A stretch of DNA of 42,281 nt from a virus (lineage: Duplodnaviria; Heunggongvirae; Uroviricota; Caudoviricetes). The notes under the pieces are model-generated. The model had not been told where the DNA came from. It did not search any database and was given only the letters and a program-made list of their open reading frames with translations. The DNA lies in the IMG/VR virus record IMGVR_UViG_2778261538_000003; one strand, 5' to 3'. Made by a program: the position numbers and the translations under genes. Shown piece after piece: positions 4,017-40,214 of the stretch (the stretch's first letter is position 1; every line of letters begins with the position of its first letter).

Positions 4017-4678
4017 GCTCCTACATCAAAACCACTGATGAATTCGTTATCCATATCAAAACCAAAAAATTTTGAGCCTTCCGATGGGGTTTCCACCGAA
4101 GGTGTTTCAATGCCACCCGCCCATACCCCGGCGGCTTTTACTGTGAGATACCCCTGTTTAATTGCCGCAATTAACTCACGCGATACATCTGAAATATCAG
4201 TATCAGGAAAGACCCAGACCGATATCGTCATGTCCTGGTTATCGACTATCTGCATTCGCAGCCCGGATCCTGCTGTTGCCGCGTCAAGAATTGCCGGAAG
4301 CGAATCATTCCGTCCGTCCCAGTTATTAATCGCAATCTTCGCTTTAAGAATGACACGATAAGTTTCATCGCTGAGATACATGTATCCTGAATCAGGATCG
4401 TATGGTCCCTGCCATACCCCCTGATCATATCCAAGCCCGTCGGTATCCCAGCTGAAATAGACACCTGAGATAGGCTGGCTGACAACACGGCTACGTCCGA
4501 TCCACAATCCAAGGATGTCAAGTTGCACACCAACCGCAGAGTCAATATCAAATGCACTAATCAGCCCTCTGGTGGCAGCCGCAACATCAATAAGTGGCCG
4601 GGTCATCAGATCAACATGCGCAAGAAATTTAGGTTTGGTGGCGTGGTAGTTCGTGATTAGTTCGGTGTATTTGCTCAT
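3998..4678 (-). CDS. baseplate protein (gpI/XkdU-like position)
   Basis: 226 aa, overlaps neighbours by a few bases; gene order between baseplate J-like protein and tail fibre. Confidence 0.5.
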   Translation of the reverse strand: MSKYTELITNYHATKPKFLAHVDLMTRPLIDVAAATRGLISAFDIDSAVGVQLDILGLWIGRSRVVSQPISGVYFSWDTDGLGYDQGVWQGPYDPDSGYMYLSDETYRVILKAKIAINNWDGRNDSLPAILDAATAGSGLRMQIVDNQDMTISVWVFPDTDISDVSRELIAAIKQGYLTVKAAGVWAGGIETPSVETPSEGSKFFGFDMDNEFISGFDVGAWGVLL

Positions 4679-5874
4679 GACTCCACCGTTATAACGATAT
4701 TTTTCGGGGTACAGGACGCAGATTCGTTGTATCTGATATCAATGTTTGATGACGACAAAGCCCCCGGGGATTTCCCAATCGTCAGTTCCTGAATATCGTA
4801 ATAGCGTGCATTCCCGCCACTCACCACGCCAAGATTCGCCGGTGAGTAAATGCGACTTAAAAGGACCGAATCACCAATCATCAGACTATTGATATAGTCG
4901 GAAATAGCCTGCTGGATCTGCTGCCCTATCTGTGAGGTATAACCCGTAAAAACTTTTAATTTAATCAGGGCATAAACAGGCACATCACTGGAACGCGAGA
5001 ATTTGATTACATGGGGATTGCCGTATTTATCCGGAACCGTAACGGATGTTGTACCGTGAGTGGCTGTCCCCTGGCCTTTATTCCCTCTGATAGCCTGAGC
5101 AATATCCGTTACATCACCGCCATCCACAATTACAGCAACAGAGTGTGGCGGTAACCCGTTACCGTCCTCCGAACCAGTATCGTTTTCATAGAGTTTGTGG
5201 CGGGTTACACCGGTAACATTAGAAACAGCACCATCCAGTGCTTCAAATGGGGTTATTGATGGCAACGCAACACTTTGCGACTGGCGGATACGTAACTCAG
5301 CGTCAGTTTCTGCCGGAGTGCCCACAGTGGCTGCAGCAGGATTGGTTACCGAAACCCAGCCACGGGTTGGCGTATTAATTTCAGTGATAGTTCCAGCCAG
5401 CGCCGCCACTGCACCACTGACGGAACATGTTGCGGTCACCATCACTGTACCATCCACGCCTACCACCACTGAAGCAGGCAAACGCCATATCACATTATTA
5501 CTGTCTTTCACGCTGCCATTAATGATGGTTGTTCCGGCAGTTCCTGTAAGAAGCAAATCAACCGTAGAGTTCGTCGCGCCTTTACGTGAAATACCATTTA
5601 TTTTCACGTTACAGGTCAGTGCAGCCCCATAGCCGGTTGCCGGTGAAAAACAGTTGTAGACAGTTATCGCAGTATTATTGGCATCATGAATCGCCAGCGC
5701 CATCAGAGCCACCATCTGGCCGTCTTTGCTGTCCGGTTCGAGGTAGGCATCACTGCCATAAATCTGCTGAAAATAGCTAATCAGGGTGCTGAGTATCGTC
5801 TGATAATCAGGCGCACTGATCCCCTCCGCGGTTACCTTTGCAGATAAACCGAGAGAATCAAGGTTCAGAGCCAT
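4675..5874 (-). CDS. baseplate J-like protein
   Basis: 399 aa; size and position typical of the baseplate wedge protein in contractile-tail operons. Confidence 0.6.
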   Translation of the reverse strand: MALNLDSLGLSAKVTAEGISAPDYQTILSTLISYFQQIYGSDAYLEPDSKDGQMVALMALAIHDANNTAITVYNCFSPATGYGAALTCNVKINGISRKGATNSTVDLLLTGTAGTTIINGSVKDSNNVIWRLPASVVVGVDGTVMVTATCSVSGAVAALAGTITEINTPTRGWVSVTNPAAATVGTPAETDAELRIRQSQSVALPSITPFEALDGAVSNVTGVTRHKLYENDTGSEDGNGLPPHSVAVIVDGGDVTDIAQAIRGNKGQGTATHGTTSVTVPDKYGNPHVIKFSRSSDVPVYALIKLKVFTGYTSQIGQQIQQAISDYINSLMIGDSVLLSRIYSPANLGVVSGGNARYYDIQELTIGKSPGALSSSNIDIRYNESASCTPKNIVITVES

Positions 5875-6227
5875 TACGCCTCCGATGTAACAGTCGTTAT
5901 TCCATAAAGAGTGTCGATTTCAGCGGAAAACATGACACGTCGGGTCGTGGTATCCAGCGTCGTATTGAAAGAGAGGATTGATTTAACGCCCTGCGTTTCG
6001 AGGATGCGCTTACGGATCGCCAGGTTGTAGGTTTCCGGCTTCTGCTTACCGAGTACGGACTGGATCCACGGAGTCCCCTCGGTGGTGTCGAGAAACCATT
6101 GCCCATACCACAATTCGAATCGCGTTTTTACCGCCTGCGCCACGGCCTCCGGTGAGTTAATCAGCCAGGTGTCATCACCGCTGCCAAAGGTGTAATCGCC
6201 ATCGGCGTCTTCACGTCTGTATCGCAT
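5874..6227 (-). CDS. small baseplate protein (gpW/gp25-like position)
   Basis: 117 aa; stop/start overlap with the flanking baseplate genes. Confidence 0.45.
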   Translation of the reverse strand: MRYRREDADGDYTFGSGDDTWLINSPEAVAQAVKTRFELWYGQWFLDTTEGTPWIQSVLGKQKPETYNLAIRKRILETQGVKSILSFNTTLDTTTRRVMFSAEIDTLYGITTVTSEA

Positions 6228-6979
6228 CAGTTTACCCCGTCGGTACTGCTTCCACCGCGCTGAACACCACCATGAGTGTGCGTATCATCGATTGGCTTGC
6301 CGTTAGCCTTCACGCTCCCCAAAAACTCAACAGCACCAGTGATTTTTGAAGCCACACCAGAAACCACAGACCCCACCATGCCCCCCATCCAGGTTAACAG
6401 GCCATGAATGGTTACTTTCTCAGAAAAATCAGCCAGGGGGGCAACCACATCAAGCCCCCCCGGAGCGACAATTTTAATTTTCCTGGTATCAGGATTAAGC
6501 TCAAAATAGGTGCTGCCGTCGTCACTACGCAACTGTGTGGCACTGGTATTAATACCGCTAATCTTCCTAGCCTGCGACTGGGGACCGACAATACAAAACG
6601 CATCCGATAAATCATGCATTCTGTCATCAACCGTCTCCTGTATCCCGCCGCTCTGCCACCAGAAATCAATACAACGATCGGCAAAAACGACAAGACACTC
6701 ATCCCCAGCTTTTACCGGAAAAGTCAACGTACAGCCTCCGCCGCGCGGGAATACCACTGGCACATCCACCAGCAATGGGTAATTTTTGGTAATGCGGTTA
6801 CCGTCGTTATCCTTTTCAACTGACCGGATAGCTGGCTGCACAACCGCCGTCACCGCGTCAGGATCGAATGACTGAATAATGCCAGGCAAGGCGACACGGA
6901 TCTGGTTCTTTGTTGTTTCCCGTTCAGATTTAAATGTTTCGGCAAGATCGCCACTGCGGGTCTGGTCAGTTACTGCCAT
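6227..6979 (-). CDS. baseplate assembly/spike protein (gpV-like position)
   Basis: 250 aa with Gly-rich C-terminus; first gene after the cargo cassette in the baseplate block. Confidence 0.5.
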   Translation of the reverse strand: MAVTDQTRSGDLAETFKSERETTKNQIRVALPGIIQSFDPDAVTAVVQPAIRSVEKDNDGNRITKNYPLLVDVPVVFPRGGGCTLTFPVKAGDECLVVFADRCIDFWWQSGGIQETVDDRMHDLSDAFCIVGPQSQARKISGINTSATQLRSDDGSTYFELNPDTRKIKIVAPGGLDVVAPLADFSEKVTIHGLLTWMGGMVGSVVSGVASKITGAVEFLGSVKANGKPIDDTHTHGGVQRGGSSTDGVN

Positions 6980-24916: not shown

Positions 24917-25070
24917 TCTTCGTGATGAACTGTTTTCAACAGATATCAGGCTAATCGGCTTTTTGGAATTCCACAACTATTTTTTATCTTACCTTGATAC
25001 CTGAAGCCGTCAGGTGTTTACGGCAATCCTGAATACCATCTGATTCCCTTACGTGATTGATTACTGGATA

Positions 25071-25493
25071 TTATGCCGCCGGGCAGCTCCTTCGCAAAGT
25101 CCTGATAGCCTTAGGCTTTGACTGAACTGCTTGATCCATTTCCAGAACCACGTCCAGCATAGCCAGGCAGCCGTCGATAAATCCCTCTGCAGCCTGGAGC
25201 CTCTTCAGAACTTGAGTGTGTGATACGCCGAGCTTCACACCCATAGCCCTCACAGGCATCGCCTGGATGTAATGCCACTCAAGGAGCGTACACAGGTACG
25301 GATCTTTTTTCTTCAGGCAGTTCATAGCAGAGCTGATGATCAGACCGTCATTGTCACTGCACTTCAGCCGCCCGGCTTGCGTTGCAGGTAGCAGATTCTT
25401 AAATCCAGCGGAAACAGGTGGATAGTAGACACTGCAACCTTCGCTCGCAGCCCAGCCCCCCCATCGCTCTAAAACCAGTCGAATATCACGCAT
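25071..25493 (-). CDS. late gene antiterminator Q
   Basis: N-terminus MRDIRLVLERWGGWAA and C-terminal ...KRLQAAEGFIDGCLAMLDVVLEMD resemble QuuD-type Q proteins as recalled; immediately upstream of the lysis cassette. Confidence 0.8.
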   Translation of the reverse strand: MRDIRLVLERWGGWAASEGCSVYYPPVSAGFKNLLPATQAGRLKCSDNDGLIISSAMNCLKKKDPYLCTLLEWHYIQAMPVRAMGVKLGVSHTQVLKRLQAAEGFIDGCLAMLDVVLEMDQAVQSKPKAIRTLRRSCPAA

Positions 25494-25518
25494 AGCTCTG
25501 ACCTCTACGTTTTGCTAC

Positions 25519-25809
25519 TTACCGTTCATCTTTCATTTTGAGGTTAGAAAGATGTTTAAGCCGCTGGCAATACGCTTTCCAGTAAGCCTCAGAGTGCATC
25601 GGGTGCTCGATATCGCTATACAGCCATACACAGTCGTCGCGCTGAGTTACCGGCGGTGGCGCCAACACATCTCGAGTGGCCTGCGTTAGTGCTCTTTTGA
25701 AGAAAAAAGCCTCCCCTAAGGGCTGGTAGTCTCTGTTGAATGCTTCCCAAGCCCCCTCAGCTGTTTTGCGGATACCGTAAGGCATACATTGGCGGAATAT
25801 CTTTGACAT
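25519..25809 (-). CDS. hypothetical protein (nin-region equivalent)
   Basis: 96-aa ORF between the origin repeats and Q. Confidence 0.4.
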   Translation of the reverse strand: MSKIFRQCMPYGIRKTAEGAWEAFNRDYQPLGEAFFFKRALTQATRDVLAPPPVTQRDDCVWLYSDIEHPMHSEAYWKAYCQRLKHLSNLKMKDER

Positions 25810-25858
25810 CGTCGTATCCTCATTTAGTTATTTGCTAATTTTTTCAAGTTAATTTCCG

Positions 25859-26122
25859 GGTGACGGCTAGGTGACGCGTAATTACATATCCGTCACCTGC
25901 TGCAAAGCGCGCCATATAAGGCCTGAAGATGTTTTAGGTGACAGGTGACGGTTGATTTTAGTTCTCTATATATAAGCGATCGTATAATACCTAAAATACA
26001 CACTATCGCGTATATAGTTTTAAATTCTGCCGTCACCTGTCACCTTTAGCACATTTCCCATTGTTTTATATATACTTTTTAAGGTGACGCTTAAGCGTTT
26101 TGCCGTCACCTAGCCGTCACCT
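25859..26122. repeat. iteron array, putative phage origin of replication
   Basis: Ten copies of GGTGAC(G/A)G in both orientations, arranged as nested inverted pairs around an AT-rich centre near 25990 (25859-25878 vs 26103-26122; 25890-25899 vs 26082-26090; 25936-25951 vs 26030-26045). Confidence 0.7.
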
Positions 26123-26124
26123 TT

Positions 26125-28386
26125 TTACAATCCAGATTGCAAAATTTCGCAAGATTTATATATTTCGCGCAATTCTTCGTTGCTGAAATCGTTATTTTTT
26201 ACAAGAATCCAAATCCTATATACAAACCCGTCAATTTTTACGCGTACGGGTTCCCGCTTTGTTCTTTCTTTCAAAATGCGAGTAATATGCTTCTGGTTAA
26301 TTTCTACATCCATTCCTGCTTCTGCCAGTATTGCGTTAACAATTTGTTGATAAGTCATTGCTGGCACAGGCGGATTATCCAGGATTTCAATAAGAGCAGC
26401 CTCCACATCGCTCTTATTGCTTTCAATCATCAGAAGGCGTTCTTTCGTCTCGGGGGCGCGCTGCCAGTTAAAGCGAGACAGGTCAACGCCCATCAGATAC
26501 CAGTACACCTGGGCGATAAAGTCGCTGTCGCTTAGCGCACCGTACAGGCTGGCGTAATGCTCTTCAGTTGCGGCGAAGTCAGGGCCCCCCAGCACAGCGA
26601 TACGTCGGTCTTCCTCTGGCAGCGCCAGCGCATCAAAGTGGTTGGTGTAGAACAGAAAGCCGGTGTATATATCCATCGTTTTTTTGCTGCCATATTTGCG
26701 GTTCACTTCAAACCGTGGTTCTGTCAGCACGTCACGGATCTTATCGTTCACCTCATACCGCTTATCATTTTCGCGCACCTCGTCAATGGTGCATAGAAGC
26801 GTATTGTACAGATAGTCATGGAACTGGTTATCGCACAGGATCTTCATGCGAGTACGAGCACAGTTCCACGGACCAAGCACGCGCTCCATTAACTGGCTGA
26901 CCCATCCTCTGCCCGTACCATGTGCGGAAGCCACATGCAGAATAGAAATCGGGCATCGACGCTCCGGACGCTGAACCATCCACCCCAGACGGGCGATGAA
27001 AAACTCGCGCTGCCAGGCATCAGGTACCAGATACGCCATATGATTAAGGAACGTGGACACCTTACTTGTATCCGCTGTACGTGGATGCTCAGGCATATAA
27101 AATTCGTTTATCTCAAACCGCCCGTCGAAACGCTCGATAATACGTCCCGCACCGGGCTTATAGCCTGTCGTCTCAGCAATCTTCTTATGCCGATGCTCTA
27201 TCCACCGTTTGGTTGCGGGAGTTGGTTGCCCTTTCCCTTCTGGCGGGAACTGGTAAGGCGCCATCAGGTTTTTGAACGACTTCATATCCATCATGCACTG
27301 ATATGGCGGTCGGCTAAGATCACATACCTGGTCACCCTCGATGACGTAGATAAAGCGTTCCAGAAAATGAGCTGTCATATCTGTATTAATATCGGTAAAT
27401 TCAGGCTTATCGCCATCTTCAACCACCGTGAGATCTTCGAACAGGGATTGCGTATAGCCGTAGCCTTCCAGCCAGTCGGCATCAGTAAGCCCCGCATCGG
27501 TGTTGTGCATGCTTTTAAAATGTCCCTGTTCAAATCCCCCCGTCCCTTTTGGGAAATACTTAATGGATGTTTCGCTGCAACCGTTGCTGTATTCTGACTC
27601 ATCCCGAAACGGTTTCAGATTGCGGGAACCATCAGAGCTGACTGACAGAGTCCACCCGTTCGCGTCAAGCCAGTCGGCGACATCATCTGTCGCGGAAGGA
27701 TCAACACAGGAAAGATCACGCTGACGTCCTGCACCTGCGGTATAGCTGTCTTTCACGGGTAAGTTATCCGCCAGACGCTGCCACAGGCTTTCGAGCTGTT
27801 CAGATGTAATTTTCAGAGGTTCGCCGGGCAGACCGCAGTCCCACTGAATACGTTCGCCTGCCGGATGGGTACCACAAGCCACAAACTGCTGGCCCTTAGC
27901 GAGCAGCTCTATTTGTTTGTTTTCGCCTTCCAGGCGGTGACCACGTTTACGGTAGTCGCCATCAACAGCAATCAGGTACAGGCATTTATGACTGTCAGCC
28001 CGCCAGCGACGTGGCGGAAGTTCCCCCAGGCATGACAGGATAATATTGCGTACGATCTCCTGCATCCCGGCGTCATTGATATCGCAGTCCAGAGCCACCA
28101 CCCCGTCGCCAGTACGAACGCAAATACCGTAATCGGGTTCGTTCGACCACCGGGCAAAATCGTTTTCCGTAACAACATAGTTAGCCCAGTCGGGGATACC
28201 AACAACCTTACGTTGGCCATTGTAGCGACTGGGGGTTTTGCCGAAATTATGAGACAGCTTGCTATTAGGCGACAGTTCTGCACAGGGATTGGACACCACA
28301 GGTAAAAGCCTGTCTGTCATCCCCAACACCAGATCGAAGTGGAACCACTCATCGGGCGTAGCTCCCCATGGTTTGTTATCAGACAT
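26125..28386 (-). CDS. replication protein with N-terminal Prim-Pol (AEP-type primase-polymerase) domain and C-terminal primase/NTPase-like region
   Basis: Motifs GDGVVALDCDIND, SHKCLYLIAV and IELLAKGQQFVACGTHPAG fit the three Prim-Pol motifs; 753 aa; next to the iteron array. Confidence 0.65.
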   Translation of the reverse strand: MSDNKPWGATPDEWFHFDLVLGMTDRLLPVVSNPCAELSPNSKLSHNFGKTPSRYNGQRKVVGIPDWANYVVTENDFARWSNEPDYGICVRTGDGVVALDCDINDAGMQEIVRNIILSCLGELPPRRWRADSHKCLYLIAVDGDYRKRGHRLEGENKQIELLAKGQQFVACGTHPAGERIQWDCGLPGEPLKITSEQLESLWQRLADNLPVKDSYTAGAGRQRDLSCVDPSATDDVADWLDANGWTLSVSSDGSRNLKPFRDESEYSNGCSETSIKYFPKGTGGFEQGHFKSMHNTDAGLTDADWLEGYGYTQSLFEDLTVVEDGDKPEFTDINTDMTAHFLERFIYVIEGDQVCDLSRPPYQCMMDMKSFKNLMAPYQFPPEGKGQPTPATKRWIEHRHKKIAETTGYKPGAGRIIERFDGRFEINEFYMPEHPRTADTSKVSTFLNHMAYLVPDAWQREFFIARLGWMVQRPERRCPISILHVASAHGTGRGWVSQLMERVLGPWNCARTRMKILCDNQFHDYLYNTLLCTIDEVRENDKRYEVNDKIRDVLTEPRFEVNRKYGSKKTMDIYTGFLFYTNHFDALALPEEDRRIAVLGGPDFAATEEHYASLYGALSDSDFIAQVYWYLMGVDLSRFNWQRAPETKERLLMIESNKSDVEAALIEILDNPPVPAMTYQQIVNAILAEAGMDVEINQKHITRILKERTKREPVRVKIDGFVYRIWILVKNNDFSNEELREIYKSCEILQSGL

Positions 28387-28389
28387 GGG

Positions 28390-28590
28390 TTACGCCTTTT
28401 GTCTAGCTGTCACTTCCTGAAAAAGCTTTTCTATCGCACGTACTGTAGAAAAGCGAGGGTCAGAATGAACCCCGGTGAGAAGCCGACTAATAGAAGACTG
28501 CTTCACGCCTGCAATTTCGGCAATTTGGTTTTGGGTATACCCTGAATCAATCAAGCTTTTGACCATCTCTTGTGGTGTTAGTCCGGACAT
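28390..28590 (-). CDS. Cro-like HTH transcriptional regulator
   Basis: 66 aa with HTH (TQNQIAEIAGVKQSSISRLLTG); divergent from the CI-like gene, first gene of the minus-strand early operon. Confidence 0.7.
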   Translation of the reverse strand: MSGLTPQEMVKSLIDSGYTQNQIAEIAGVKQSSISRLLTGVHSDPRFSTVRAIEKLFQEVTARQKA

Positions 28591-28731: not shown

Positions 28732-29406
28732 ATGATTGATACTACCGATATCCTTTCTCAAAACATCAAGTACCTGATGGACAAAGCCAAGATAAGCTCG
28801 ATAACTGAGCTGGCACGTCGGTTACAACTGAACCAACCAACGCTACACAGGCTGGTATCAGGAGAGGTGAAAGATCCGAAATACGCAACGTTAAAGCAGA
28901 TCGCCGACTACTTCCACGTGTCACCAATAGACCTGGCAGAAAGGAGCCTTCAAGAAATGGAGAAAGAGGACGCGACGGGTATAAAAACGTATATTTCTCT
29001 TAGGTTTAATAAAGTACCTGTTTTGGGAAACACTCAGCTAGGCGTTGGAGGACTTTGGAGCGACACCCAATATTCAGTAGGTAGCAGTGATGGTTTCATA
29101 TACTGGCCGACAAAGGATGAAGATGCATACGCCCTGAAATGTGTTGGTGATTCAATGATGCCTAGAATCAAAGAGGGTGAGTTCGTAATCGTCGAACCCA
29201 ACCACGACTACACTCCTGGTGATGAAGTACTTGTGGTTACCCGGGACGGTGAGGTCATGGTTAAAACCTTCTTGTTCGAACGCGATGGCCTGTTCCATCT
29301 AATGTCTGTAAATGAAGATCATCCACCAGTCAGAGTACCACGCGAAAACATTGAAAAAATCCATTACGTGGCGGGGATCGCCAAATCCGCGCTACGCATG
29401 TACTAA
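28732..29406 (+). CDS. CI-like repressor (N-terminal HTH, C-terminal LexA/S24 autopeptidase domain)
   Basis: HTH near the N-terminus; S24 Ser/Lys dyad context CVGDSMMPRI ... VMVKTF. Confidence 0.9.
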   Translation: MIDTTDILSQNIKYLMDKAKISSITELARRLQLNQPTLHRLVSGEVKDPKYATLKQIADYFHVSPIDLAERSLQEMEKEDATGIKTYISLRFNKVPVLGNTQLGVGGLWSDTQYSVGSSDGFIYWPTKDEDAYALKCVGDSMMPRIKEGEFVIVEPNHDYTPGDEVLVVTRDGEVMVKTFLFERDGLFHLMSVNEDHPPVRVPRENIEKIHYVAGIAKSALRMY

Positions 29407-30554: not shown

Positions 30555-30725
30555 ATGAAAAAAGGAATACAACCGATGAAACCTGAACACCTCTATCGAC
30601 TGACGGGGCGCGATGTTCTCCGTTATCGCCGTAAAAACTTCGATTTGATGACCGGTCTGGCCGTTGCCACTGCGCTCGGTCTGATCATCACTTTCATTCT
30701 CCTTGTAGCGAGGACCACAGTATGA
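30555..30725 (+). CDS. small membrane protein (56 aa), translationally coupled to the next gene
   Basis: Hand-translated [56 protein letters not shown]; its stop overlaps the downstream start (ATGA); below the ORF-track size cutoff. Confidence 0.3.
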   Translation: MKKGIQPMKPEHLYRLTGRDVLRYRRKNFDLMTGLAVATALGLIITFILLVARTTV

Positions 30726-31624
30726 GTTTAGAAACCAGTCTCGAACTTAATAATCAACTTCTGGCACAACATAATGCGCTGCTTGAACGTCTTATCCGCA
30801 CAATGGCATCAGGTATTGTTATGCATCCTGACACGATTTCACGAGTGCAGGAATGTCGGGATACAGCAACTGAAACTGAAAATATGTCAGCGGCAATGAC
30901 ACTGGATGATCTGGAGTTCAGCGACGTTATCGCACTGGCTGGTTTCTACCCAGTAGCCACCCCTATCACAGAAGACATGCTGCAACGTGCTGTTGCCTAC
31001 CGTGATGCTGAAGGCGATAAACGAGTAGTTCAGATTGATGCTCTCGACAGCGCATTGCAGGGCGTCAAACGAGCCAGGGCGCTGCTTAAACCTGCTCTCC
31101 TGGACCTGTCCCGTAACATCCTTAAGTTCTGGGACGACCTGCCAACCATCGGCGAGCGACGTGCTTTTGCCGAGCAGCTACTTGATGCACCTGCGGATGG
31201 GCGTGATGAAGTTAAGCCGAAAAAGGCCAGTAACAAAGATGGAGAACGCACGGGGCCGTTTTACGTCAAAAATGTATCCGGCACAGCAGCCAGTGAACTC
31301 CACACCTTACGCAAGTTGAACGAGATGCTGAAAAAAGGCCATATCGAGACCAACCGTGTTGAGTACCTTCAGCTGCAGGAAGAATTTGCACGCAGAGACA
31401 CAGCAAATTCCAGCCAGAATAATGACGCCAAAGATGACCATACAATTGATTTCGCGGCACTACGCAAACAAGCTGAAGGGTTGATCCTCCAGTTAGCAAA
31501 AGGGGGTTACCGGGCAGAAGCTATTGCAATTCTGGAAAAACAGGGAGCCAGGAAACTTGGTGAAGTAACGGATGAAAATCTCGCTGAAGTAATCACCCTG
31601 GCTGAAAAAGCACTGGAGGGTTAA
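30722..31624 (+). CDS. hypothetical protein (early operon)
   Basis: 300-aa acidic ORF, first large gene of the plus-strand early operon; no family recognised. Confidence 0.5.
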
Positions 31625-31626
31625 TC

Positions 31627-32928
31627 ATGCCAGACGTTCATGCACAACTTTCTCCATCATCAGCGCATCGATGGATGCGCTGCCCAGGAAGTCTGGCGCT
31701 GGAGGCCACACAACCGGATAAAGAAACAACTTTTGCAATCGAGGGCACTGCAGCGCACGCGCTTGCTGAAAAAGTTCTACGAAACAGGCAAAGCCACCCG
31801 GAACACTACGCCGGATGCAATGTTTCTATGTTTCTCGGCTCATACCCCCTTCGCGAAAATCCTGATGATACATCTGGCCCACAGGTGGATGATGAAATGG
31901 TCGAAGCCGTTGGCCGGTATGTTGATACGGTCTGGACTCTTGCACAGAATAATGAACTATTGGTTGAACAACGTGTTGATTTCTCACATATAACGGGTGT
32001 GGAAGAATCTTTCGGAACTGCCGACGGCATAATCATCGCTGGTAGCGAATTACAAATCCACGACCTGAAATATGGCAAAGGCGTCCGCATTGATGCAGAA
32101 CAAAATGAGCAACTACAACTGTATGCTCTGGGTGCTCTCGAACAATTCAGCATGCTGTATGACTTTGAGACTGTAAGATTATTTATTCACCAGCCAAGGC
32201 TCAACCACGTTTCAGAATGGTCGTTAACCGTGCAGGAACTTCAGTCTTTCGGTAAACGAGCACAGGAGGCCGCAACCAGTGCGATCCTTGTTCTCAATAT
32301 TGCTGAATGCGAAGGCATTGAGACACTACCGCTGGAAAACTTCATACCTGGAGAAAAGCAGTGCCGCTTCTGTAAAGCAAAAGCTATTTGCACTGCCCAG
32401 AAAATGCAGCATTTACAAACAGCGGCCAGCGACTTTGAAGATCTGACAAAGCCTGTCAGCGAAATAATCACCAATGCCAGCGCACGTGTACCTCTGTTAA
32501 CCATTGAGCAGCTTGCGGAGATCTATAGCCAGGCCGACTTTATTGAGTCCTGGCTAAAGGCAGTACGGGACCGGGTTCACAATGAACTCAATGCCGGACA
32601 TCCGGTACCGGGGTTTAAACTGGTAACAGGAAAACAAGGTAACCGGGCCTGGAGTGATGAAGAGGCAGCTCGCGCACTTCTGAAGGACCAGTTCAGGTAC
32701 AAAACTGAAGAAGTATTCGACTTTAAACTTATTAGTCCCACAAAAGCCGAAAAACTTATCAAAAAGGCCAGTCCACGCCGTTGGTCAAAAGTCGAGGCAC
32801 TGATAACACGAGCTGATGGTAAACCAACCGTCGTTCCCGAGTCAGACCCACGCCCCGCACTCAATATCAACCCTGTAAATGATTTCGACGACGTATCCGA
32901 CGATACGCTAACCGCAGACCTCATCTGA
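31627..32928 (+). CDS. Cas4/RecB-like PD-(D/E)xK nuclease (DUF2800-type)
   Basis: N-terminal Cys (MRCPGS), IHDLKYGKG core and C-terminal [10 protein letters not shown] cluster fit the Cas4-like nuclease Fe-S pattern; commonly paired with DUF2815 and PolA. Confidence 0.75.
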
Positions 32929-32943
32929 TTTAAGGAAATACCC

Positions 32944-33492
32944 ATGAAACTGAAGCTGAACAATGTTCGTCTGGCCTTCCCGTCTCTGTTTGAAGCTAAA
33001 ACTGTAAACGGCGAAGGCGATCCGCGTTTCTCCGCAGTATTTTTAATGTCTCCCAAACACCCACAACTGGAAGAAATCCGTAAAGCTATGAAGCAGGTAG
33101 CGAAGGAAAAATGGGGAGAGAAGTGGGAGCCCATTTATAACCAGCTGGAGAAAAAACTCAATCTGTGCCTGCATGATGGTGATGAAAAAGCAGAGTATGA
33201 AGGCTTCCCCGGCAATTTCTTCCTGAATGCTGCTAACAAAGCGCGCCCAGCTGTTCTTGATCGCGATCGTTCGCCACTTATTCAGGCTGACGGACGTCCT
33301 TATGCAGGGTGCTATGTAAACGCCGTTATCGATATCTGGGCACAGGACAATAATTTCGGTAAACGCATTAATGCCTCACTCGGCGGAGTCCAGTTCCTGC
33401 GAGACGGCGATGCATTCGCTGGCGGCGGAGTGGCAAGCGCTGACGATTTCGACGATATCAGCGAAGGTGCTGATGCTGAAGCACTAATTTAA
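32944..33492 (+). CDS. SSB-like protein (DUF2815-type) with acidic C-terminal tail
   Basis: 182 aa; acidic tail ...ADDFDDISEGADAEALI resembles SSB C-termini; sits between the nuclease and polymerase. Confidence 0.6.
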   Translation: MKLKLNNVRLAFPSLFEAKTVNGEGDPRFSAVFLMSPKHPQLEEIRKAMKQVAKEKWGEKWEPIYNQLEKKLNLCLHDGDEKAEYEGFPGNFFLNAANKARPAVLDRDRSPLIQADGRPYAGCYVNAVIDIWAQDNNFGKRINASLGGVQFLRDGDAFAGGGVASADDFDDISEGADAEALI

Positions 33493-33544
33493 CCCTACTT
33501 CATAGACGCCCGGTTAAACACCGGGCTACTGATTAGGCGTATAA

Positions 33545-34174
33545 TCACTCAGGAATCTTAATCTTTCTCAATTCTTTATTTAGTTCACAGATCTTTTTCT
33601 TAGACGGGAAAGTATCATACATCCAAAAACCAACAGTCTCTAAAACTATTATCATAACCATATACACAAGATAATTTAAAAGGCCTTCATTTTGCCCTAT
33701 GGAAATAATGCAGATAATAGAAAAAAGGGTAAACAGCACAAAACACAGAAAGGAAAACAGACGACTAATAATAAATAAAAAACCTGAAAAATCAACATTA
33801 ATAAAAAACACTCCGTTATCTTTCTCTATATAATTCTGAAGCTTAATCAACTGATTTATATACTGTCTTTTTTCTAATCTATTGCAAATGTAAATAACAT
33901 CTCTTCGGTTATAAGAGGATTGCAATTTCAGCGCATCACGAATAATTTTATCATTTATTCTTTTTTCTATGGCTTTCTTATCCTCCTTATCCAGATAACG
34001 TTCATACTTAATTAAATATAAAATTAACTTCTTGACATATTTAGGCTCTTTATACTTATAATTAAAAATGATCTTTCTTATCCAGACTCCCATAACAATC
34101 AAACATGAAAAAATATATCCAGCTATTTTCTCCAGATGCTCTGTATGGTCAATCAAGTATTGGATCATATGCAT
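33545..34174 (-). CDS. hypothetical membrane protein (very AT-rich cargo gene on the opposite strand)
   Basis: 209 aa, Lys/Ile/Tyr-rich with one N-terminal and two to three C-terminal hydrophobic helices; GC far below the flanking genes. Confidence 0.55.
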   Translation of the reverse strand: MHMIQYLIDHTEHLEKIAGYIFSCLIVMGVWIRKIIFNYKYKEPKYVKKLILYLIKYERYLDKEDKKAIEKRINDKIIRDALKLQSSYNRRDVIYICNRLEKRQYINQLIKLQNYIEKDNGVFFINVDFSGFLFIISRLFSFLCFVLFTLFSIICIISIGQNEGLLNYLVYMVMIIVLETVGFWMYDTFPSKKKICELNKELRKIKIPE

Positions 34175-34220
34175 AATTAATCTTTTAATCAGTTAATAGA
34201 ATAAAAACCTAGGTAAACAC

Positions 34221-36284
34221 ATGTCCAATATACTATGGGGCGACCTGGAAACCTATTGCGAAATCCCTATTACGAACGGTACCCATGCGTATGCCGAAGG
34301 CGTTGAAGTGATGCTTTTCGCATGGGCTATCAACGACGGGCCAGTAAACGTGTGGGATATCACTGCCGGTGGTGGTATTCCACACGGCTTATACGAAGCA
34401 ATCGCAGACCCTGAAACCCTGCTTTATTTCCATAACTCTCACTTCGACCGCACCGTTCTGCGTTATGCAATGCCGCGACTGGCACCGCCAGTCGAACGTT
34501 GGCGCGACACGATGGTGCAGGCGCTGGCGCACGGTCTCCCGGGGTCTCTGGGGGAACTCTGCGAAGTACTAGGCGTCCCGCAAGACAAAGCGAAGGACAA
34601 AGAAGGTAAAGCGCTGATCCAGCTGTTCTGTAAGCCACGTCCGAAAAACAGCAAACTGCGTCGGGCCACCAGTAAAACCCATCCGGAAGAATGGCGGCGC
34701 TTTGTTGCTTACGCCGGACTGGATATCGAAGCAATGCGTGAAGTCTATAAACGTCTGCCGAAGTGGAATTATCAGGGGACAGAGCTGGCGCTCTGGCATC
34801 GTGATCAGCAGATCAACGACCGGGGCGTCTGCATGGACATGCAACTCGCGCGCGCTGCGATCGAAGCGGTAGACCAGGAGCAAAAGCGCCTGGCAAAGCG
34901 TACACAGGAAATGACTGATGGCGAAGTGCAGGCAGCCACACAACGGGACGCGTTGATTAAGCACATCGTTGAATCCTACGGTGTGGAGCTACCAGACATG
35001 CAACGCAGTACCCTGGAACGTCGTATGGCCGACCCCGATTTATCATCTGCCGTGAAAGAACTGCTGGCTATCCGCCTGCAAGCCAGTACTACCAGCACCA
35101 GTAAATACAAGGCACTGATGAAAGGCGTAAGCCACGACGGGCGCTTACGCGGTACGCTACAGTTCTGCGGGGCGTCACGTACCGGTCGTTGGGCCGGACG
35201 GCTATTCCAGCCCCAGAACCTTCCCCGCCCTTCACTAAAACAGGAACAAATAGACGAAGGCATCGAAGCACTGAAAGCCGGATGTGCAGACCTGCTGTTT
35301 GACAATATCATGGAACTAACCAGTTCAGCGTTACGTGGCTGCATTATCGCGCCAACAGGCAAAAAACTAGTGGTAAGTGACTTGTCAAACATTGAAGGCC
35401 GTATGCTGGCATGGCTGGCGGGAGAAGAATGGAAACTGAATGCATTCAGAGAGTATGACGCTGGAACGGGTCCGGACTTATATAAACTGGCGTATGCAAA
35501 AGCTTTCGATATTGCACCAGATGATGTTGATAAACACATGCGTCAGATCGGTAAAGTCATGGAACTCGGTCTGGGTTATGGAGGTGGTGTATCGGCTTTC
35601 ATCACTTTTGCTCTGGTTTACGGTCTCGATCTCGACGAGCTGGCGAACGCCGCACTGCCAAACATTCCCCGCGATGTTATCCGCGAGGCAAAAAGCTGGT
35701 ACGACGAATCGGTTAAGCGTAAGTCGACCTTTGGCCTGTCCGAGCGTGTATTCATCGCATGTGACTCGCTCAAGCGCCTGTGGCGCAGGGCGCACCCGGC
35801 GACCTGCGATTTCTGGTACGAGCTGGAGCGCACTGTCCGCACAGCAATCGCCACACCGCAAAAAACATTGTATTGCGGCTATCTTAAAATCCGACGTGAT
35901 GGCGCGTGGCTGCGCATACAGCTACCATCCGGACGCGCTGTATGCTACCCGTCTCCGGTTATCGAACAAGGGAATATCACCTACATGGGTGTTAACTCTT
36001 ATTCGCGTAAATGGCAACGACTCAAAACCTACGGCGGAAAGCTGGTGGAGAACGTCACCCAGGCGGCCGCCCGCGACGTTCTAGCCAGAAACATGCCGCT
36101 GATCGAGGGTGCCGGTTACAGCATTGTGCTAACGGTACACGACGAGGTGATCACCGAAGCACCAGACACAGAAGATTTCAACGATAAAGCGCTTTCCGCG
36201 CTTCTCTCCACTAACCCCGAATGGGCACCCGATATTCCGCTGAACGCTGGCGGCTTTGAGGCGTACCACTACAAAAAAGATTGA
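34221..36284 (+). CDS. family A DNA polymerase with 3'-5' proofreading exonuclease domain
   Basis: Exo I DLETY; motif [11 protein letters not shown]; motif [13 protein letters not shown]; motif C VHDEV. Confidence 0.92.
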
Positions 36285-38819: not shown

Positions 38820-40214
38820 ATGCCCCCAAAATATATACCTCGCCCCTACCAAGTTCTCATTATCAACCACGAAACCGAAACCCTGCGCGGCAACATCTGG
38901 GCGGGGATGGGAATGGGTAAAACCGTGGCAACGCTCACTGCGCTGGAAGATCTCTTTATGGCAGGGGCAGAAACATGCCCCGCACTGGTCCTCGCGCCGC
39001 TGCGCGTGGCTGCCAGCACATGGCCGGATGAAGCACTGAAGTGGGGACATTTGCGCAATATCGAGGTGCAGCCAATTATTGGTAATGCCAAAGCGCGCTC
39101 TATGGCGCTGACGAACAGCAACGCAAGCGTGTTCACCATCAACTACGATAACCTTGTCTGGCTGATTGAAGAATTGGGAGAACGATGGCCGTTCGGTACT
39201 GTCATTCCAGATGAAAGCACCCGGCTAAAATCCTTCCGGCTGCGCGGTGGTGGTAAGCGCGCGGCGGCGCTGGGCAAAGTGGCGCATAAGTATGTCCGGC
39301 GCTGGATAAATCTCACCGGTACGCCAGCACCGAACGGCCTGGTAGATTTGTGGGGACAATCGTGGTTTGTGGACCAGGGGCAACGTCTCGGGCGCACTTA
39401 CGGCGCGTTTACCTCACGCTGGTTCAACTCGATACAGTTTCCGGGGCAGAGCTGGACCAAACTGGAGCCTTTTGCTCACTCACAGGGTGAAATACAGCGA
39501 GCGTTAGCCGATGTAACCCTCTCGCTGGATGCGGCCGACTGGTTCGATATCAAAGACCCCATCCATAACGTAATCCGCGTGGATATGCCACCGAAGGCCC
39601 GTCAGCAGTATCGTGAAATGGAAAAGGAAATGTTCCTCGAGCTGAATGGCGAAGGCATCGAAGCACCGAACGCCGCGGCAAAGACACTGAAGTGTCTGCA
39701 AATCGCCAGCGGCGCAGTATACACAGATGACACCGGAAGTTGGTCAGAACTGCATGACACCAAACTACAGGCGCTGGACAGCATACTGACCGAAGCAGCT
39801 GGCGCACCTGTGCTGGTTGCTTATCACTGGAAACACGATCTTGAACGCTTGCTTAAAGCATTCCCTCGCGGTCGTCACCTCGACCAGGATCCACAGACAC
39901 TGCGCGACTGGAATTCCGGAAAGATTCCTGTTCTCTTTGCACACCCAGCCAGCGCGGGCCACGGCCTGAACATGCAGGACGGCGGAAATATACTGGTATT
40001 TTTCTCACACTGGTGGGACCTGGAGCAATATCAGCAAATTATTGAACGTATCGGCCCCACCAGGCAGATACAGGCCGGACACAATCGTCCGGTATTTATT
40101 CACCACATTATTGCTGCCGACACTATGGATGAAATGGTGATGGAGCGGCGCAACTCAAAACGAACAGTGCAGGACATCCTGCTCGATGCCATGAAAAAGA
40201 GAGGTATAGCATGA
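38820..40214 (+). CDS. SNF2-family helicase/ATPase
   Basis: Walker A GMGMGKT, DExx box VIPDESTRL and a C-terminal helicase region; 464 aa. Confidence 0.85.
   Translation: MPPKYIPRPYQVLIINHETETLRGNIWAGMGMGKTVATLTALEDLFMAGAETCPALVLAPLRVAASTWPDEALKWGHLRNIEVQPIIGNAKARSMALTNSNASVFTINYDNLVWLIEELGERWPFGTVIPDESTRLKSFRLRGGGKRAAALGKVAHKYVRRWINLTGTPAPNGLVDLWGQSWFVDQGQRLGRTYGAFTSRWFNSIQFPGQSWTKLEPFAHSQGEIQRALADVTLSLDAADWFDIKDPIHNVIRVDMPPKARQQYREMEKEMFLELNGEGIEAPNAAAKTLKCLQIASGAVYTDDTGSWSELHDTKLQALDSILTEAAGAPVLVAYHWKHDLERLLKAFPRGRHLDQDPQTLRDWNSGKIPVLFAHPASAGHGLNMQDGGNILVFFSHWWDLEQYQQIIERIGPTRQIQAGHNRPVFIHHIIAADTMDEMVMERRNSKRTVQDILLDAMKKRGIA

Follow-up and report, generated by a model that had tools for sequence, protein, structure and literature searches.

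A set of ten octamer repeats lying directly past the stop codon of a phage primase-helicase gene is probably the replication origin of this phage, read by the protein that is encoded immediately upstream, a reading to which we give a probability of roughly three in four. Sequence comparison makes it very probable that this adjacent initiator-helicase has its cognate sites in the repeats, and the SaPI Rep/ori, P4 alpha, and pRN1 systems suggest by analogy that replication starts at the array.

The repeat array and its genomic setting

Judged by its sequence, the window (the whole stretch of DNA analyzed, 42,281 bp) is an E. coli temperate phage, and four Escherichia phage records (vB_EcoM-606R2 and relatives) match its positions 25400–28500 at 100% identity. 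The array is placed between the primase-helicase gene and the Q antiterminator (Table 1), and from this local gene order it occupies the position of the lambdoid replication and nin region. The other side of the immunity region encodes a DUF2800 nuclease, an Enc34-type SSB, a family-A DNA polymerase, a TIR-domain protein, an SNF2 helicase, and an integrase. The replication set among these (nuclease, SSB, polymerase, and SNF2 helicase) is parted from the primase-helicase gene and the array by cI/cro. The TIR gene sits inside the early-left replication operon, with the family-A polymerase on one side and the SNF2 helicase on the other, and is possibly a defense or counter-defense gene. The 96-aa ORF between array and Q matched nothing in Pfam or PHROG, and in one related locus (L030) it is swapped for unrelated sequence next to an unchanged array. 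GC skew was discarded as an origin indicator, as it is monotonic and dominated by transcription direction.

Table 1 Positions of the array, its component sites, and neighboring genes in the window
Feature	Position	Strand	Remarks
Holin, lysis, terminase, and structural genes	beyond Q	-	
Q antiterminator	25071-25493	-	
96-aa ORF between array and Q	25519-25809	-	
Intergenic gap holding the array	25810-26124		315 bp
Sites in + orientation (starts)	25859, 25870, 25937, 25944, 26083	+	
Sites in - orientation (starts)	25890, 26030, 26037, 26103, 26114	-	
Gene-distal outer block	25859-25897		25859-25866 (+), 25870-25877 (+, GGTGACGC), 25890-25897 (-); mirrors 26083-26121; in I1
Gene-distal inner pair	25937-25951	+	GGTGACAGGTGACGG; mirrors 26030-26044; in I2
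A+T-rich center, presumed unwinding element	25952-26029		core palindrome 25969-25983 / 26002-26016
Gene-proximal inner pair	26030-26044	-	CCGTCACCTGTCACC; one-base overlap; faces center
Gene-proximal outer block	26083-26121		three repeats: 26114-26121 (-), 26103-26110 (-), 26083-26090 (+, GGTGACGC)
Putative initiator gene	26125-28386	-	753-aa Prim-Pol + DUF5906 protein
Candidate specificity segment	26128-26259	-	aa 710-753 (wing and last helix); exchanged with the array
Predicted winged-helix DNA-binding domain	26128-26409	-	~aa 660-753
Cro-like HTH	28390-28590	-	
cI-like repressor	28732-29406	+	
Phage replication set	30722-36284	+	DUF2800 PD-(D/E)XK nuclease, Enc34-type SSB, family-A DNA polymerase
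TIR protein, 253 aa	36349-37110	+	CAP12/Pycsar-type TIR effector domain (Pfam 2.9e-31)
SNF2 helicase	38820-40214	+	part of the phage replication set

The array comprises ten octamers with a GGTGAC core within 263 bp (25859–26121), and 3 nt separate the nearest repeat from the stop codon of the Prim-Pol gene (array end 26121, gene end 26125). Across the window, GGTGACRS was observed 19 times against 4.06 ± 2.06 expected, a count reached in 0 of 100 shuffles, and 10 of these 19 occurrences fall in 25859–26121, where chance would place about 0.025 per 263 bp. The enrichment and the coordinates together confirm the original prediction of a repeat array next to the Prim-Pol gene. Its description of the array as ten copies of GGTGAC(G/A)G holds for eight of the ten; the other two, at 25870–25877 and 26083–26090, are GGTGACGC.

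The prediction had further proposed three nested inverted pairs near 25990 on an A+T-rich, imperfectly palindromic core, all of which was recovered. The outermost inverted repeat (I1, 25859–25898 / 26082–26121) spans 40 nt at 78% complementarity, the second (I2, 25936–25970 / 26011–26045) 35 nt at 80%, and the core (I3, 25969–25983 / 26002–26016) 15 nt at 87%, while the 78-bp center (25952–26029) is 73% A+T vs 51% for the whole window. In terms of sites, these nested repeats form two blocks containing five mirrored pairs, to which the palindromic core is added, and every pair is centered on 25990 ± 0.5 bp. Counted in gene direction, the sites start 3, 14, 36, 80, 87, 175, 182, 227, 249, and 260 nt past the stop codon, oriented ++- ++ before the dyad center and -- +-- after it. 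The gene-proximal outer block has center-to-center spacings of 11 and 20 bp.

Covariation of the repeats with the C-terminal wing

We compared 20 reference-genome loci and 42 viral-contig loci, along with the contexts of four mosaic proteins. Full-length homologs, at 36–99% identity, were found in Escherichia, Salmonella, Citrobacter, Klebsiella, Trabulsiella, Serratia, Xenorhabdus, Arsenophonus, Limnobaculum, and Avibacterium. Of the loci compared, nearly all have an array past the stop codon with the same spacing and orientation (about 50 related loci, from Enterobacterales as well as remoter Gamma- and Alphaproteobacteria), its sites lying at offsets of approximately 3+, 14+, 36-, 80+, 87+, 175-, 182-, 227+, 249-, and 260-; the outer-block offsets of 3, 14, and 36 thus recur, and the inner pair keeps its 7-bp spacing. 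The octamer word, on the other hand, varies by lineage: it is GGTGACGG in the window, one of GGTGACGG, GGTGACAG, GGTGTCAG, GGTGGCAG, GGTAACAG, or GGTTGCAG in Enterobacterales loci, GGTACCAC in Algicola, GGGTGACAC in a Rhodobacteraceae MAG, and GGAGACGC in IMCC1989. A fixed geometry combined with a changing word points to a binding-site array for a co-evolving protein. Among complete E. coli genomes, 45 of 5426 carry the array, and in those 45 it is an intergenic stretch unannotated in RefSeq. Degraded versions were also seen: in L059 (2775–2826) a deletion has removed the array and the primase-helicase ORF is fused to downstream sequence, and in an Arsenophonus endosymbiont (L016/L060, downstream of 6175) the gene has a broken C-terminus and GGTGGCAG-type repeats survive only as remnants.

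The adjacent 753-aa protein is laid out as an N-terminal Prim-Pol (AEP primase-polymerase) domain, an SF3/D5-like helicase (DUF5906, NrS-1-like), and a C-terminal winged-helix domain. It matches Pfam Prim-Pol (3.1e-07) and DUF5906 (5.8e-14) and PHROG 1156 ‘DNA primase’ (8.4e-87), and its helicase part has a PDB profile match to the NrS-1 helicase region (6k9c/6k9e, 2.6e-19). The fold of the C-terminal domain is a winged helix as modeled by AlphaFold2 for residues 620–753 (17-sequence alignment, pLDDT 80.8), with the element order helix-strand-helix-helix-strand-strand-helix; the recognition helix H3 is predicted at aa 698–709 and the wing strands at aa 714–718 and 721–727. A Foldseek search of the PDB with the C-terminal model gave no significant match, and a profile of this domain found no sequence relative of a solved structure in the PDB. 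The recognition helix is nearly invariant among the enterobacterial proteins, which matches the invariant GGT...C.G frame of the octamer.

Exchanges between near-identical phages delimit the segment that travels with the repeats. Relative to the window, L032 has 9 mismatches over gene nt 1–2129, 110 mismatches in a 395-bp block (window 25863–26257), and 0 mismatches for at least 270 bp past this block. The edges of the exchanged block lie at gene nt 2130 (aa 710) and at 25863, within the last repeat, and inside it ten of ten repeats switch from GGTGACGG to GGTGGCAG. A like exchange is found in L036 and L048, with its left edge at residue 700 and with GGTAACAG repeats. Overall, three of the protein backbones each carry at least three cassettes, and the Xenorhabdus backbone carries two.

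Genes flanking this unit show no such association. L030 combines the repeats of the window with another downstream ORF, L031 combines them with another cI/cro region, and L032 has other repeats next to an identical downstream ORF, i.e., the repeats do not covary with cI, cro, or the downstream ORF. This bears on a quite different reading, in which a different transcription factor (cI, Cro, the product of the downstream 96-aa ORF, or one from the host) would use the repeats as operators to regulate the 96-aa ORF and Q, a scenario that the original prediction had itself named as the contrary case. The array is indeed intergenic and upstream of both genes, and short dyad-symmetric repeats are typical of operators, but besides the independence of the repeat class from the cI/cro region and the downstream ORF, GGTGAC is absent from the cI–cro intergenic region where operators lie, a promoter and terminator scan found no such site within the array, and the repeat class varies among E. 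coli prophages and between close hosts in a way that a host factor could not account for. We therefore consider control by a separate transcription factor very improbable.

Within the primase-helicase itself, the repeats do not follow the Prim-Pol domain, because an E. coli prophage (L022, 2501–4720) that keeps the N-terminal 44% of the protein at 97% identity, joined to a helicase of the VapE type and to another C-terminus, has different repeats: its array (4721–5034) consists of GGTTGAGTA in a different site pattern, with a 39-nt alternating center beginning ATATACGCG. Across 38 loci, mutual information with repeat class was highest at aa 721, 723, 722, 715, 745, 725, and 714, with 713 further down, and given the predicted strand positions, the class-tracking residues 713–715, 721–723, and 725 are located in the wing. 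Specific wing motifs go with specific classes, namely x-T-[N/Q]-R-F with GGTGTCAG, [G/A]-Y-R-F plus a one-residue insertion with GGTAACAG, and T-[V/L]-R with GGTGGCAG, the last on four of five backbones. For pairs of proteins at least 95% identical over aa 334–689, identity over the C-terminal 63 aa is 95% if the two share their repeats and 78% if they do not. The wing is encoded less than 300 bp from the repeats, and linkage contributes to this covariation; a coupling beyond linkage is nevertheless indicated, because the ten copies change together, because the exchanged block is bounded by the start of the wing on one side and ends within the last repeat on the other, and because the wing motifs recur on diverged backbones.

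Symmetry, array center, and secondary structure

Over 15 arrays, mirror symmetry amounted to 97% at repeat positions and 53% in spacers, and it is therefore a symmetry of sites and not of a selected stem. The two long spacers (25898–25936 and 26045–26082) have no mirror relation to each other: A+T content is 79% in the gene-proximal spacer, which has a conserved AAATCAAT, and 54% in the gene-distal spacer, which has a conserved GCCTTA, both being conserved throughout the repeat classes.

The same figures weigh on the possibility that the element acts via DNA secondary structure, as a cruciform or a pRN1-like single-strand hairpin origin in which the octamers would be only stem sequence. The array strand does fold as a long hairpin (-57.6 kcal/mol, z = -8.5 vs shuffles), as any dyad would, and assembly of a Prim-Pol/SF3/winged-helix protein at a stem-loop 3′ of its gene has been proposed for pRN1 (PMC4234260). 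Yet the low symmetry of the spacers is not that of a stem, the octamers are also direct repeats within each arm, which a stem does not need, and their sequence changes along with a protein segment. In addition, an Rfam scan of 25000–27000 returned just miRNA-hairpin matches far below threshold, by which the array was also ruled out as an RNA family. A structure-based origin thus appears quite unlikely compared with an array of protein-binding sites.

Conservation at the array center is independent of the octamer word. The window has a mirrored motif there, CTATATACGCG (26007–26017, -) and CTATATATAAGCG (25966–25978, +), and across loci a mirrored CTATATACGCGAGA ... TACGTATATAGA is found at fixed offsets irrespective of repeat class; of 53 distinct arrays, 37 have TATAYRYG at a constant offset, vs a background of 0.016 per 100 bp. 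In many arrays (L008, L007, L022, L028, and L010 among them), a tract of alternating purines and pyrimidines (CG/CA/TA steps) spans the dyad; it reaches at least 12 nt in 23 of 53 arrays vs 5% of shuffles, and is longest in the Xenorhabdus innexi locus (50 nt) and in L022 (39 nt), while that of the window is short (10 nt, TATATACGCG). Alternating purine–pyrimidine sequences unstack readily. We take the center to be the melting and possibly the priming site, at which the alternating dyad tract may be Z-DNA-prone or easily unstacked.

Candidate initiation mechanism and known counterparts

In the mechanism that we propose, the C-terminal winged-helix domain of the Prim-Pol/SF3-helicase would bind the ten octamers, with its beta-hairpin wing reading the variable bases at octamer positions 4, 5, and 7. 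The two mirror-image sets of five sites would assemble one helicase ring per arm, each facing the center, on helically phased spacings of 11, 20, and 46 bp plus the inner pair 7 bp apart. The 78-bp A+T-rich center, with its mirrored CTATATACG motif and purine–pyrimidine alternation, would then be melted, the Prim-Pol domain of the protein itself would prime, and the family-A polymerase, SSB, and nuclease of the phage (31627–36284) would take over. The original prediction had likewise envisaged an initiator bound to both arms and unwinding at the center. What stands of it is that the repeats show the behavior of sites bound by the adjacent protein, in two arms around an easily melted center, given an architecture conserved in about 50 loci and ten copies that change with the wing; physical binding, double-ring loading, and melting and priming at the center are steps that we infer. 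Against the scheme, five sites per arm do not fit simply to a six-subunit ring, and in a Devosia locus (L015) no array is visible past the gene.

Satellite P4 offers a precedent by position, and also the main ground for a competing interpretation. In the P4 record, crr (4291–4590) adjoins the alpha gene (4636–6969), and the array corresponds by position to this crr and not to the P4 ori. Because the gene-adjacent crr of P4 is a required cis element and not the annotated ori, position alone is no proof of initiation. The array could accordingly be bound by the primase-helicase yet serve as an auxiliary cis element, with initiation elsewhere: a crr-like enhancer or loading element, a copy-control or handcuffing site, or a roadblock by which occupancy by the replication protein would be coupled to transcription continuing from the early operon into Q. 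Such a role would fit with crr lying at the same position past the alpha stop codon while the annotated ori is kilobases away, with an array in the transcription path from the replication gene to Q, and with an array in which no promoter-like or terminator-like site was found. However, no second octamer cluster was detected across the 42-kb window, even with one mismatch allowed, and the array has its own conserved, A+T-rich alternating center between inward-facing sites, a self-contained origin design as in SaPIs. We regard the auxiliary role as unlikely, and retain it mainly because of the crr precedent.

Beyond position, P4 alpha and the protein studied here are both multifunctional primase-helicases with a C-terminal origin-binding domain (predicted in our case), and crr and the array both consist of octamer repeats in both orientations directly past the stop codon of the gene. 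The differences are as clear: P4 needs two separated clusters (ori and crr) in cis and this phage has one, crr is made of two 120-bp direct repeats and the array of a single dyad, and the N-terminus here is an AEP-type Prim-Pol by Pfam, while the P4 primase is of the Toprim/DnaG type. Homology to P4 alpha was sought and rejected (best BLASTP E-value 0.32; hhalign probability of 0.1% between the C-terminal profile and the alpha C-terminus). The P4 type I repeat given in the original prediction (TGTTCACC / GGTGAACA) agrees with the annotated P4 record, but the resemblance that had been drawn between it and the octamer does not support a relationship, as GGTGACGG shares only GGTGA, five contiguous bases, with GGTGAACA.

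Close functional parallels come from SaPIs, the pathogenicity islands of Staphylococcus aureus (PICI-type elements), whose origins lie immediately 3′ of rep with 6–12 iterons around an A+T-rich center, and whose Rep derives its iteron specificity from a C-terminal winged-helix domain, with probably one hexamer loading per side (PMC9371898). In SaPI Rep1, Rep2, and PriRep5 systems, the origin is found directly 3′ of the initiator-helicase ORF, as the candidate origin is here, and many specificity types exist among related elements, again as here (PMC9371898). Also shared are a set of 6–12 short repeats, at least two per side (here ten, five per side), split by an A+T-rich center and pointing in opposite directions on the two sides, specificity conferred by a C-terminal winged helix (here computed from the tracking of wing and repeats and from the predicted fold), and, with PriRep5, the fusion of primase and helicase in one polypeptide. 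Unlike in SaPIs, the octamers are nested in a fixed 5+5 arrangement whose inner pair overlaps and whose center has a conserved CTATATACG motif, and the host element is a complete temperate phage of Gram-negative bacteria whereas a SaPI is a satellite. A profile of the protein family, searched against all PDB chains, which we take to include the SaPI Rep cryo-EM structures, found only NrS-1 at E ≤ 1. Because profile searches find no relationship, we consider the protein an analog of SaPI Rep and not a member of its sequence family. By analogy, the locus would work like the SaPI Rep/ori module and P4 alpha/crr, as a sequence relative of neither.

Joint exchange of initiator and iterons is also familiar from lambdoid phages, in which initiator specificity and iterons are swapped together, yielding several replication types. 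In lambda, four iterons of ~19 bp inside the O gene are read by the N-terminal domain of O, and host DnaB is recruited through P. The present phage has the same cI-cro-replication-Q neighborhood as lambda, but unlike those of lambda O, its iterons lie past the gene, and their reader would be the C-terminal part of a self-contained primase-helicase. An origin of the iteron-plasmid or lambda O type, with tandem direct iterons of 17–22 bp and a recruited host helicase, was rejected, since the repeats are 8 bp long, in both orientations, and not tandem, and since the adjacent protein brings its own helicase and primase. In the origins of SV40 large T antigen and papillomavirus E1, mirrored short sites around a central melting region load two SF3 hexamers head to head. 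The analogy with these viral proteins is functional only, as their origin-binding domain is N-terminal to the helicase and of a different fold, with no sequence relationship.

The origin of pRN1 lies just 3′ of a Prim-Pol/SF3/winged-helix gene, and its product ORF904 and relatives (e.g., in Bordetella phage BIP-1) have the same three-domain architecture as the protein studied here (PMC4234260). This origin is described as a ~100-nt stem-loop of low sequence conservation with no defined binding repeats (PMC4234260), in contrast to the discrete octamers that covary with the protein at our locus.

Among the papers searched, none describes the origin of this phage. The kind of origin is already known and the array was previously unannotated here; what the present analysis adds are the sharply bounded wing-plus-iteron cassettes and the conserved center. 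These results assign a likely origin and a likely origin-binding domain to an unannotated prophage replication module, which is also present in prophages of Salmonella, Citrobacter, Serratia, Xenorhabdus, Arsenophonus, and beyond. They would also extend to complete temperate proteobacterial phages a design in which iterons directly follow the gene of a primase-helicase, which is established in SaPIs and of which P4 and pRN1 give hints. Where the phages are otherwise identical, their cassettes represent ready-made specificity-swap experiments, and the cassettes could also yield several mutually orthogonal E. coli replicons.

More tentatively, the locus may be a case of naturally programmable origin recognition, in which a wing cassette of ~44 residues would rewrite two to three bases of the octamer while the rigid 5+5 scaffold and the central CTATATACG/alternating element stay fixed. 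The center would then be read by a conserved part of the Prim-Pol or helicase as the melting or priming site, and cassette diversity would be driven by competition for initiators between co-resident phages and satellites. We hold this extended interpretation to be a speculative one; if true, it would provide a tractable wing-to-DNA recognition code along with a set of orthogonal replicons.

Finally, when viral contigs were scanned with the inner repeat pair, simpler arrays came up, made of three copies of GGTGACGG, a purine–pyrimidine center, and three inverted copies. These minimal 3+3 GGTGACGG arrays are found in high-GC metagenomic viral contigs (L127 6404–6510, L092 6273–6385, and L135 4267–4375), and in two of them directly past Prim-Pol/D5_N/DUF5906 genes (L127, 4127–6415, +; L092, 6399–8579, -). 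The L127 protein showed no BLASTP similarity to the window protein, and by this comparison, for which the L127 protein was the one used, the same word and design are present in an unrelated subfamily. The design therefore seems to be general for this primase-helicase class. No orphan array without an adjacent primase-helicase was seen among the few loci inspected in the viral-contig scan: full-array matches belonged to the same prophage family, and L092 and L127 adjoin unrelated Prim-Pol/D5 helicases. Another metagenomic viral contig (L142, 2689–2731) carries six head-to-tail copies of GGTGACG followed by (GCTCGT)n, which is probably an unrelated simple tandem repeat that shares the word.
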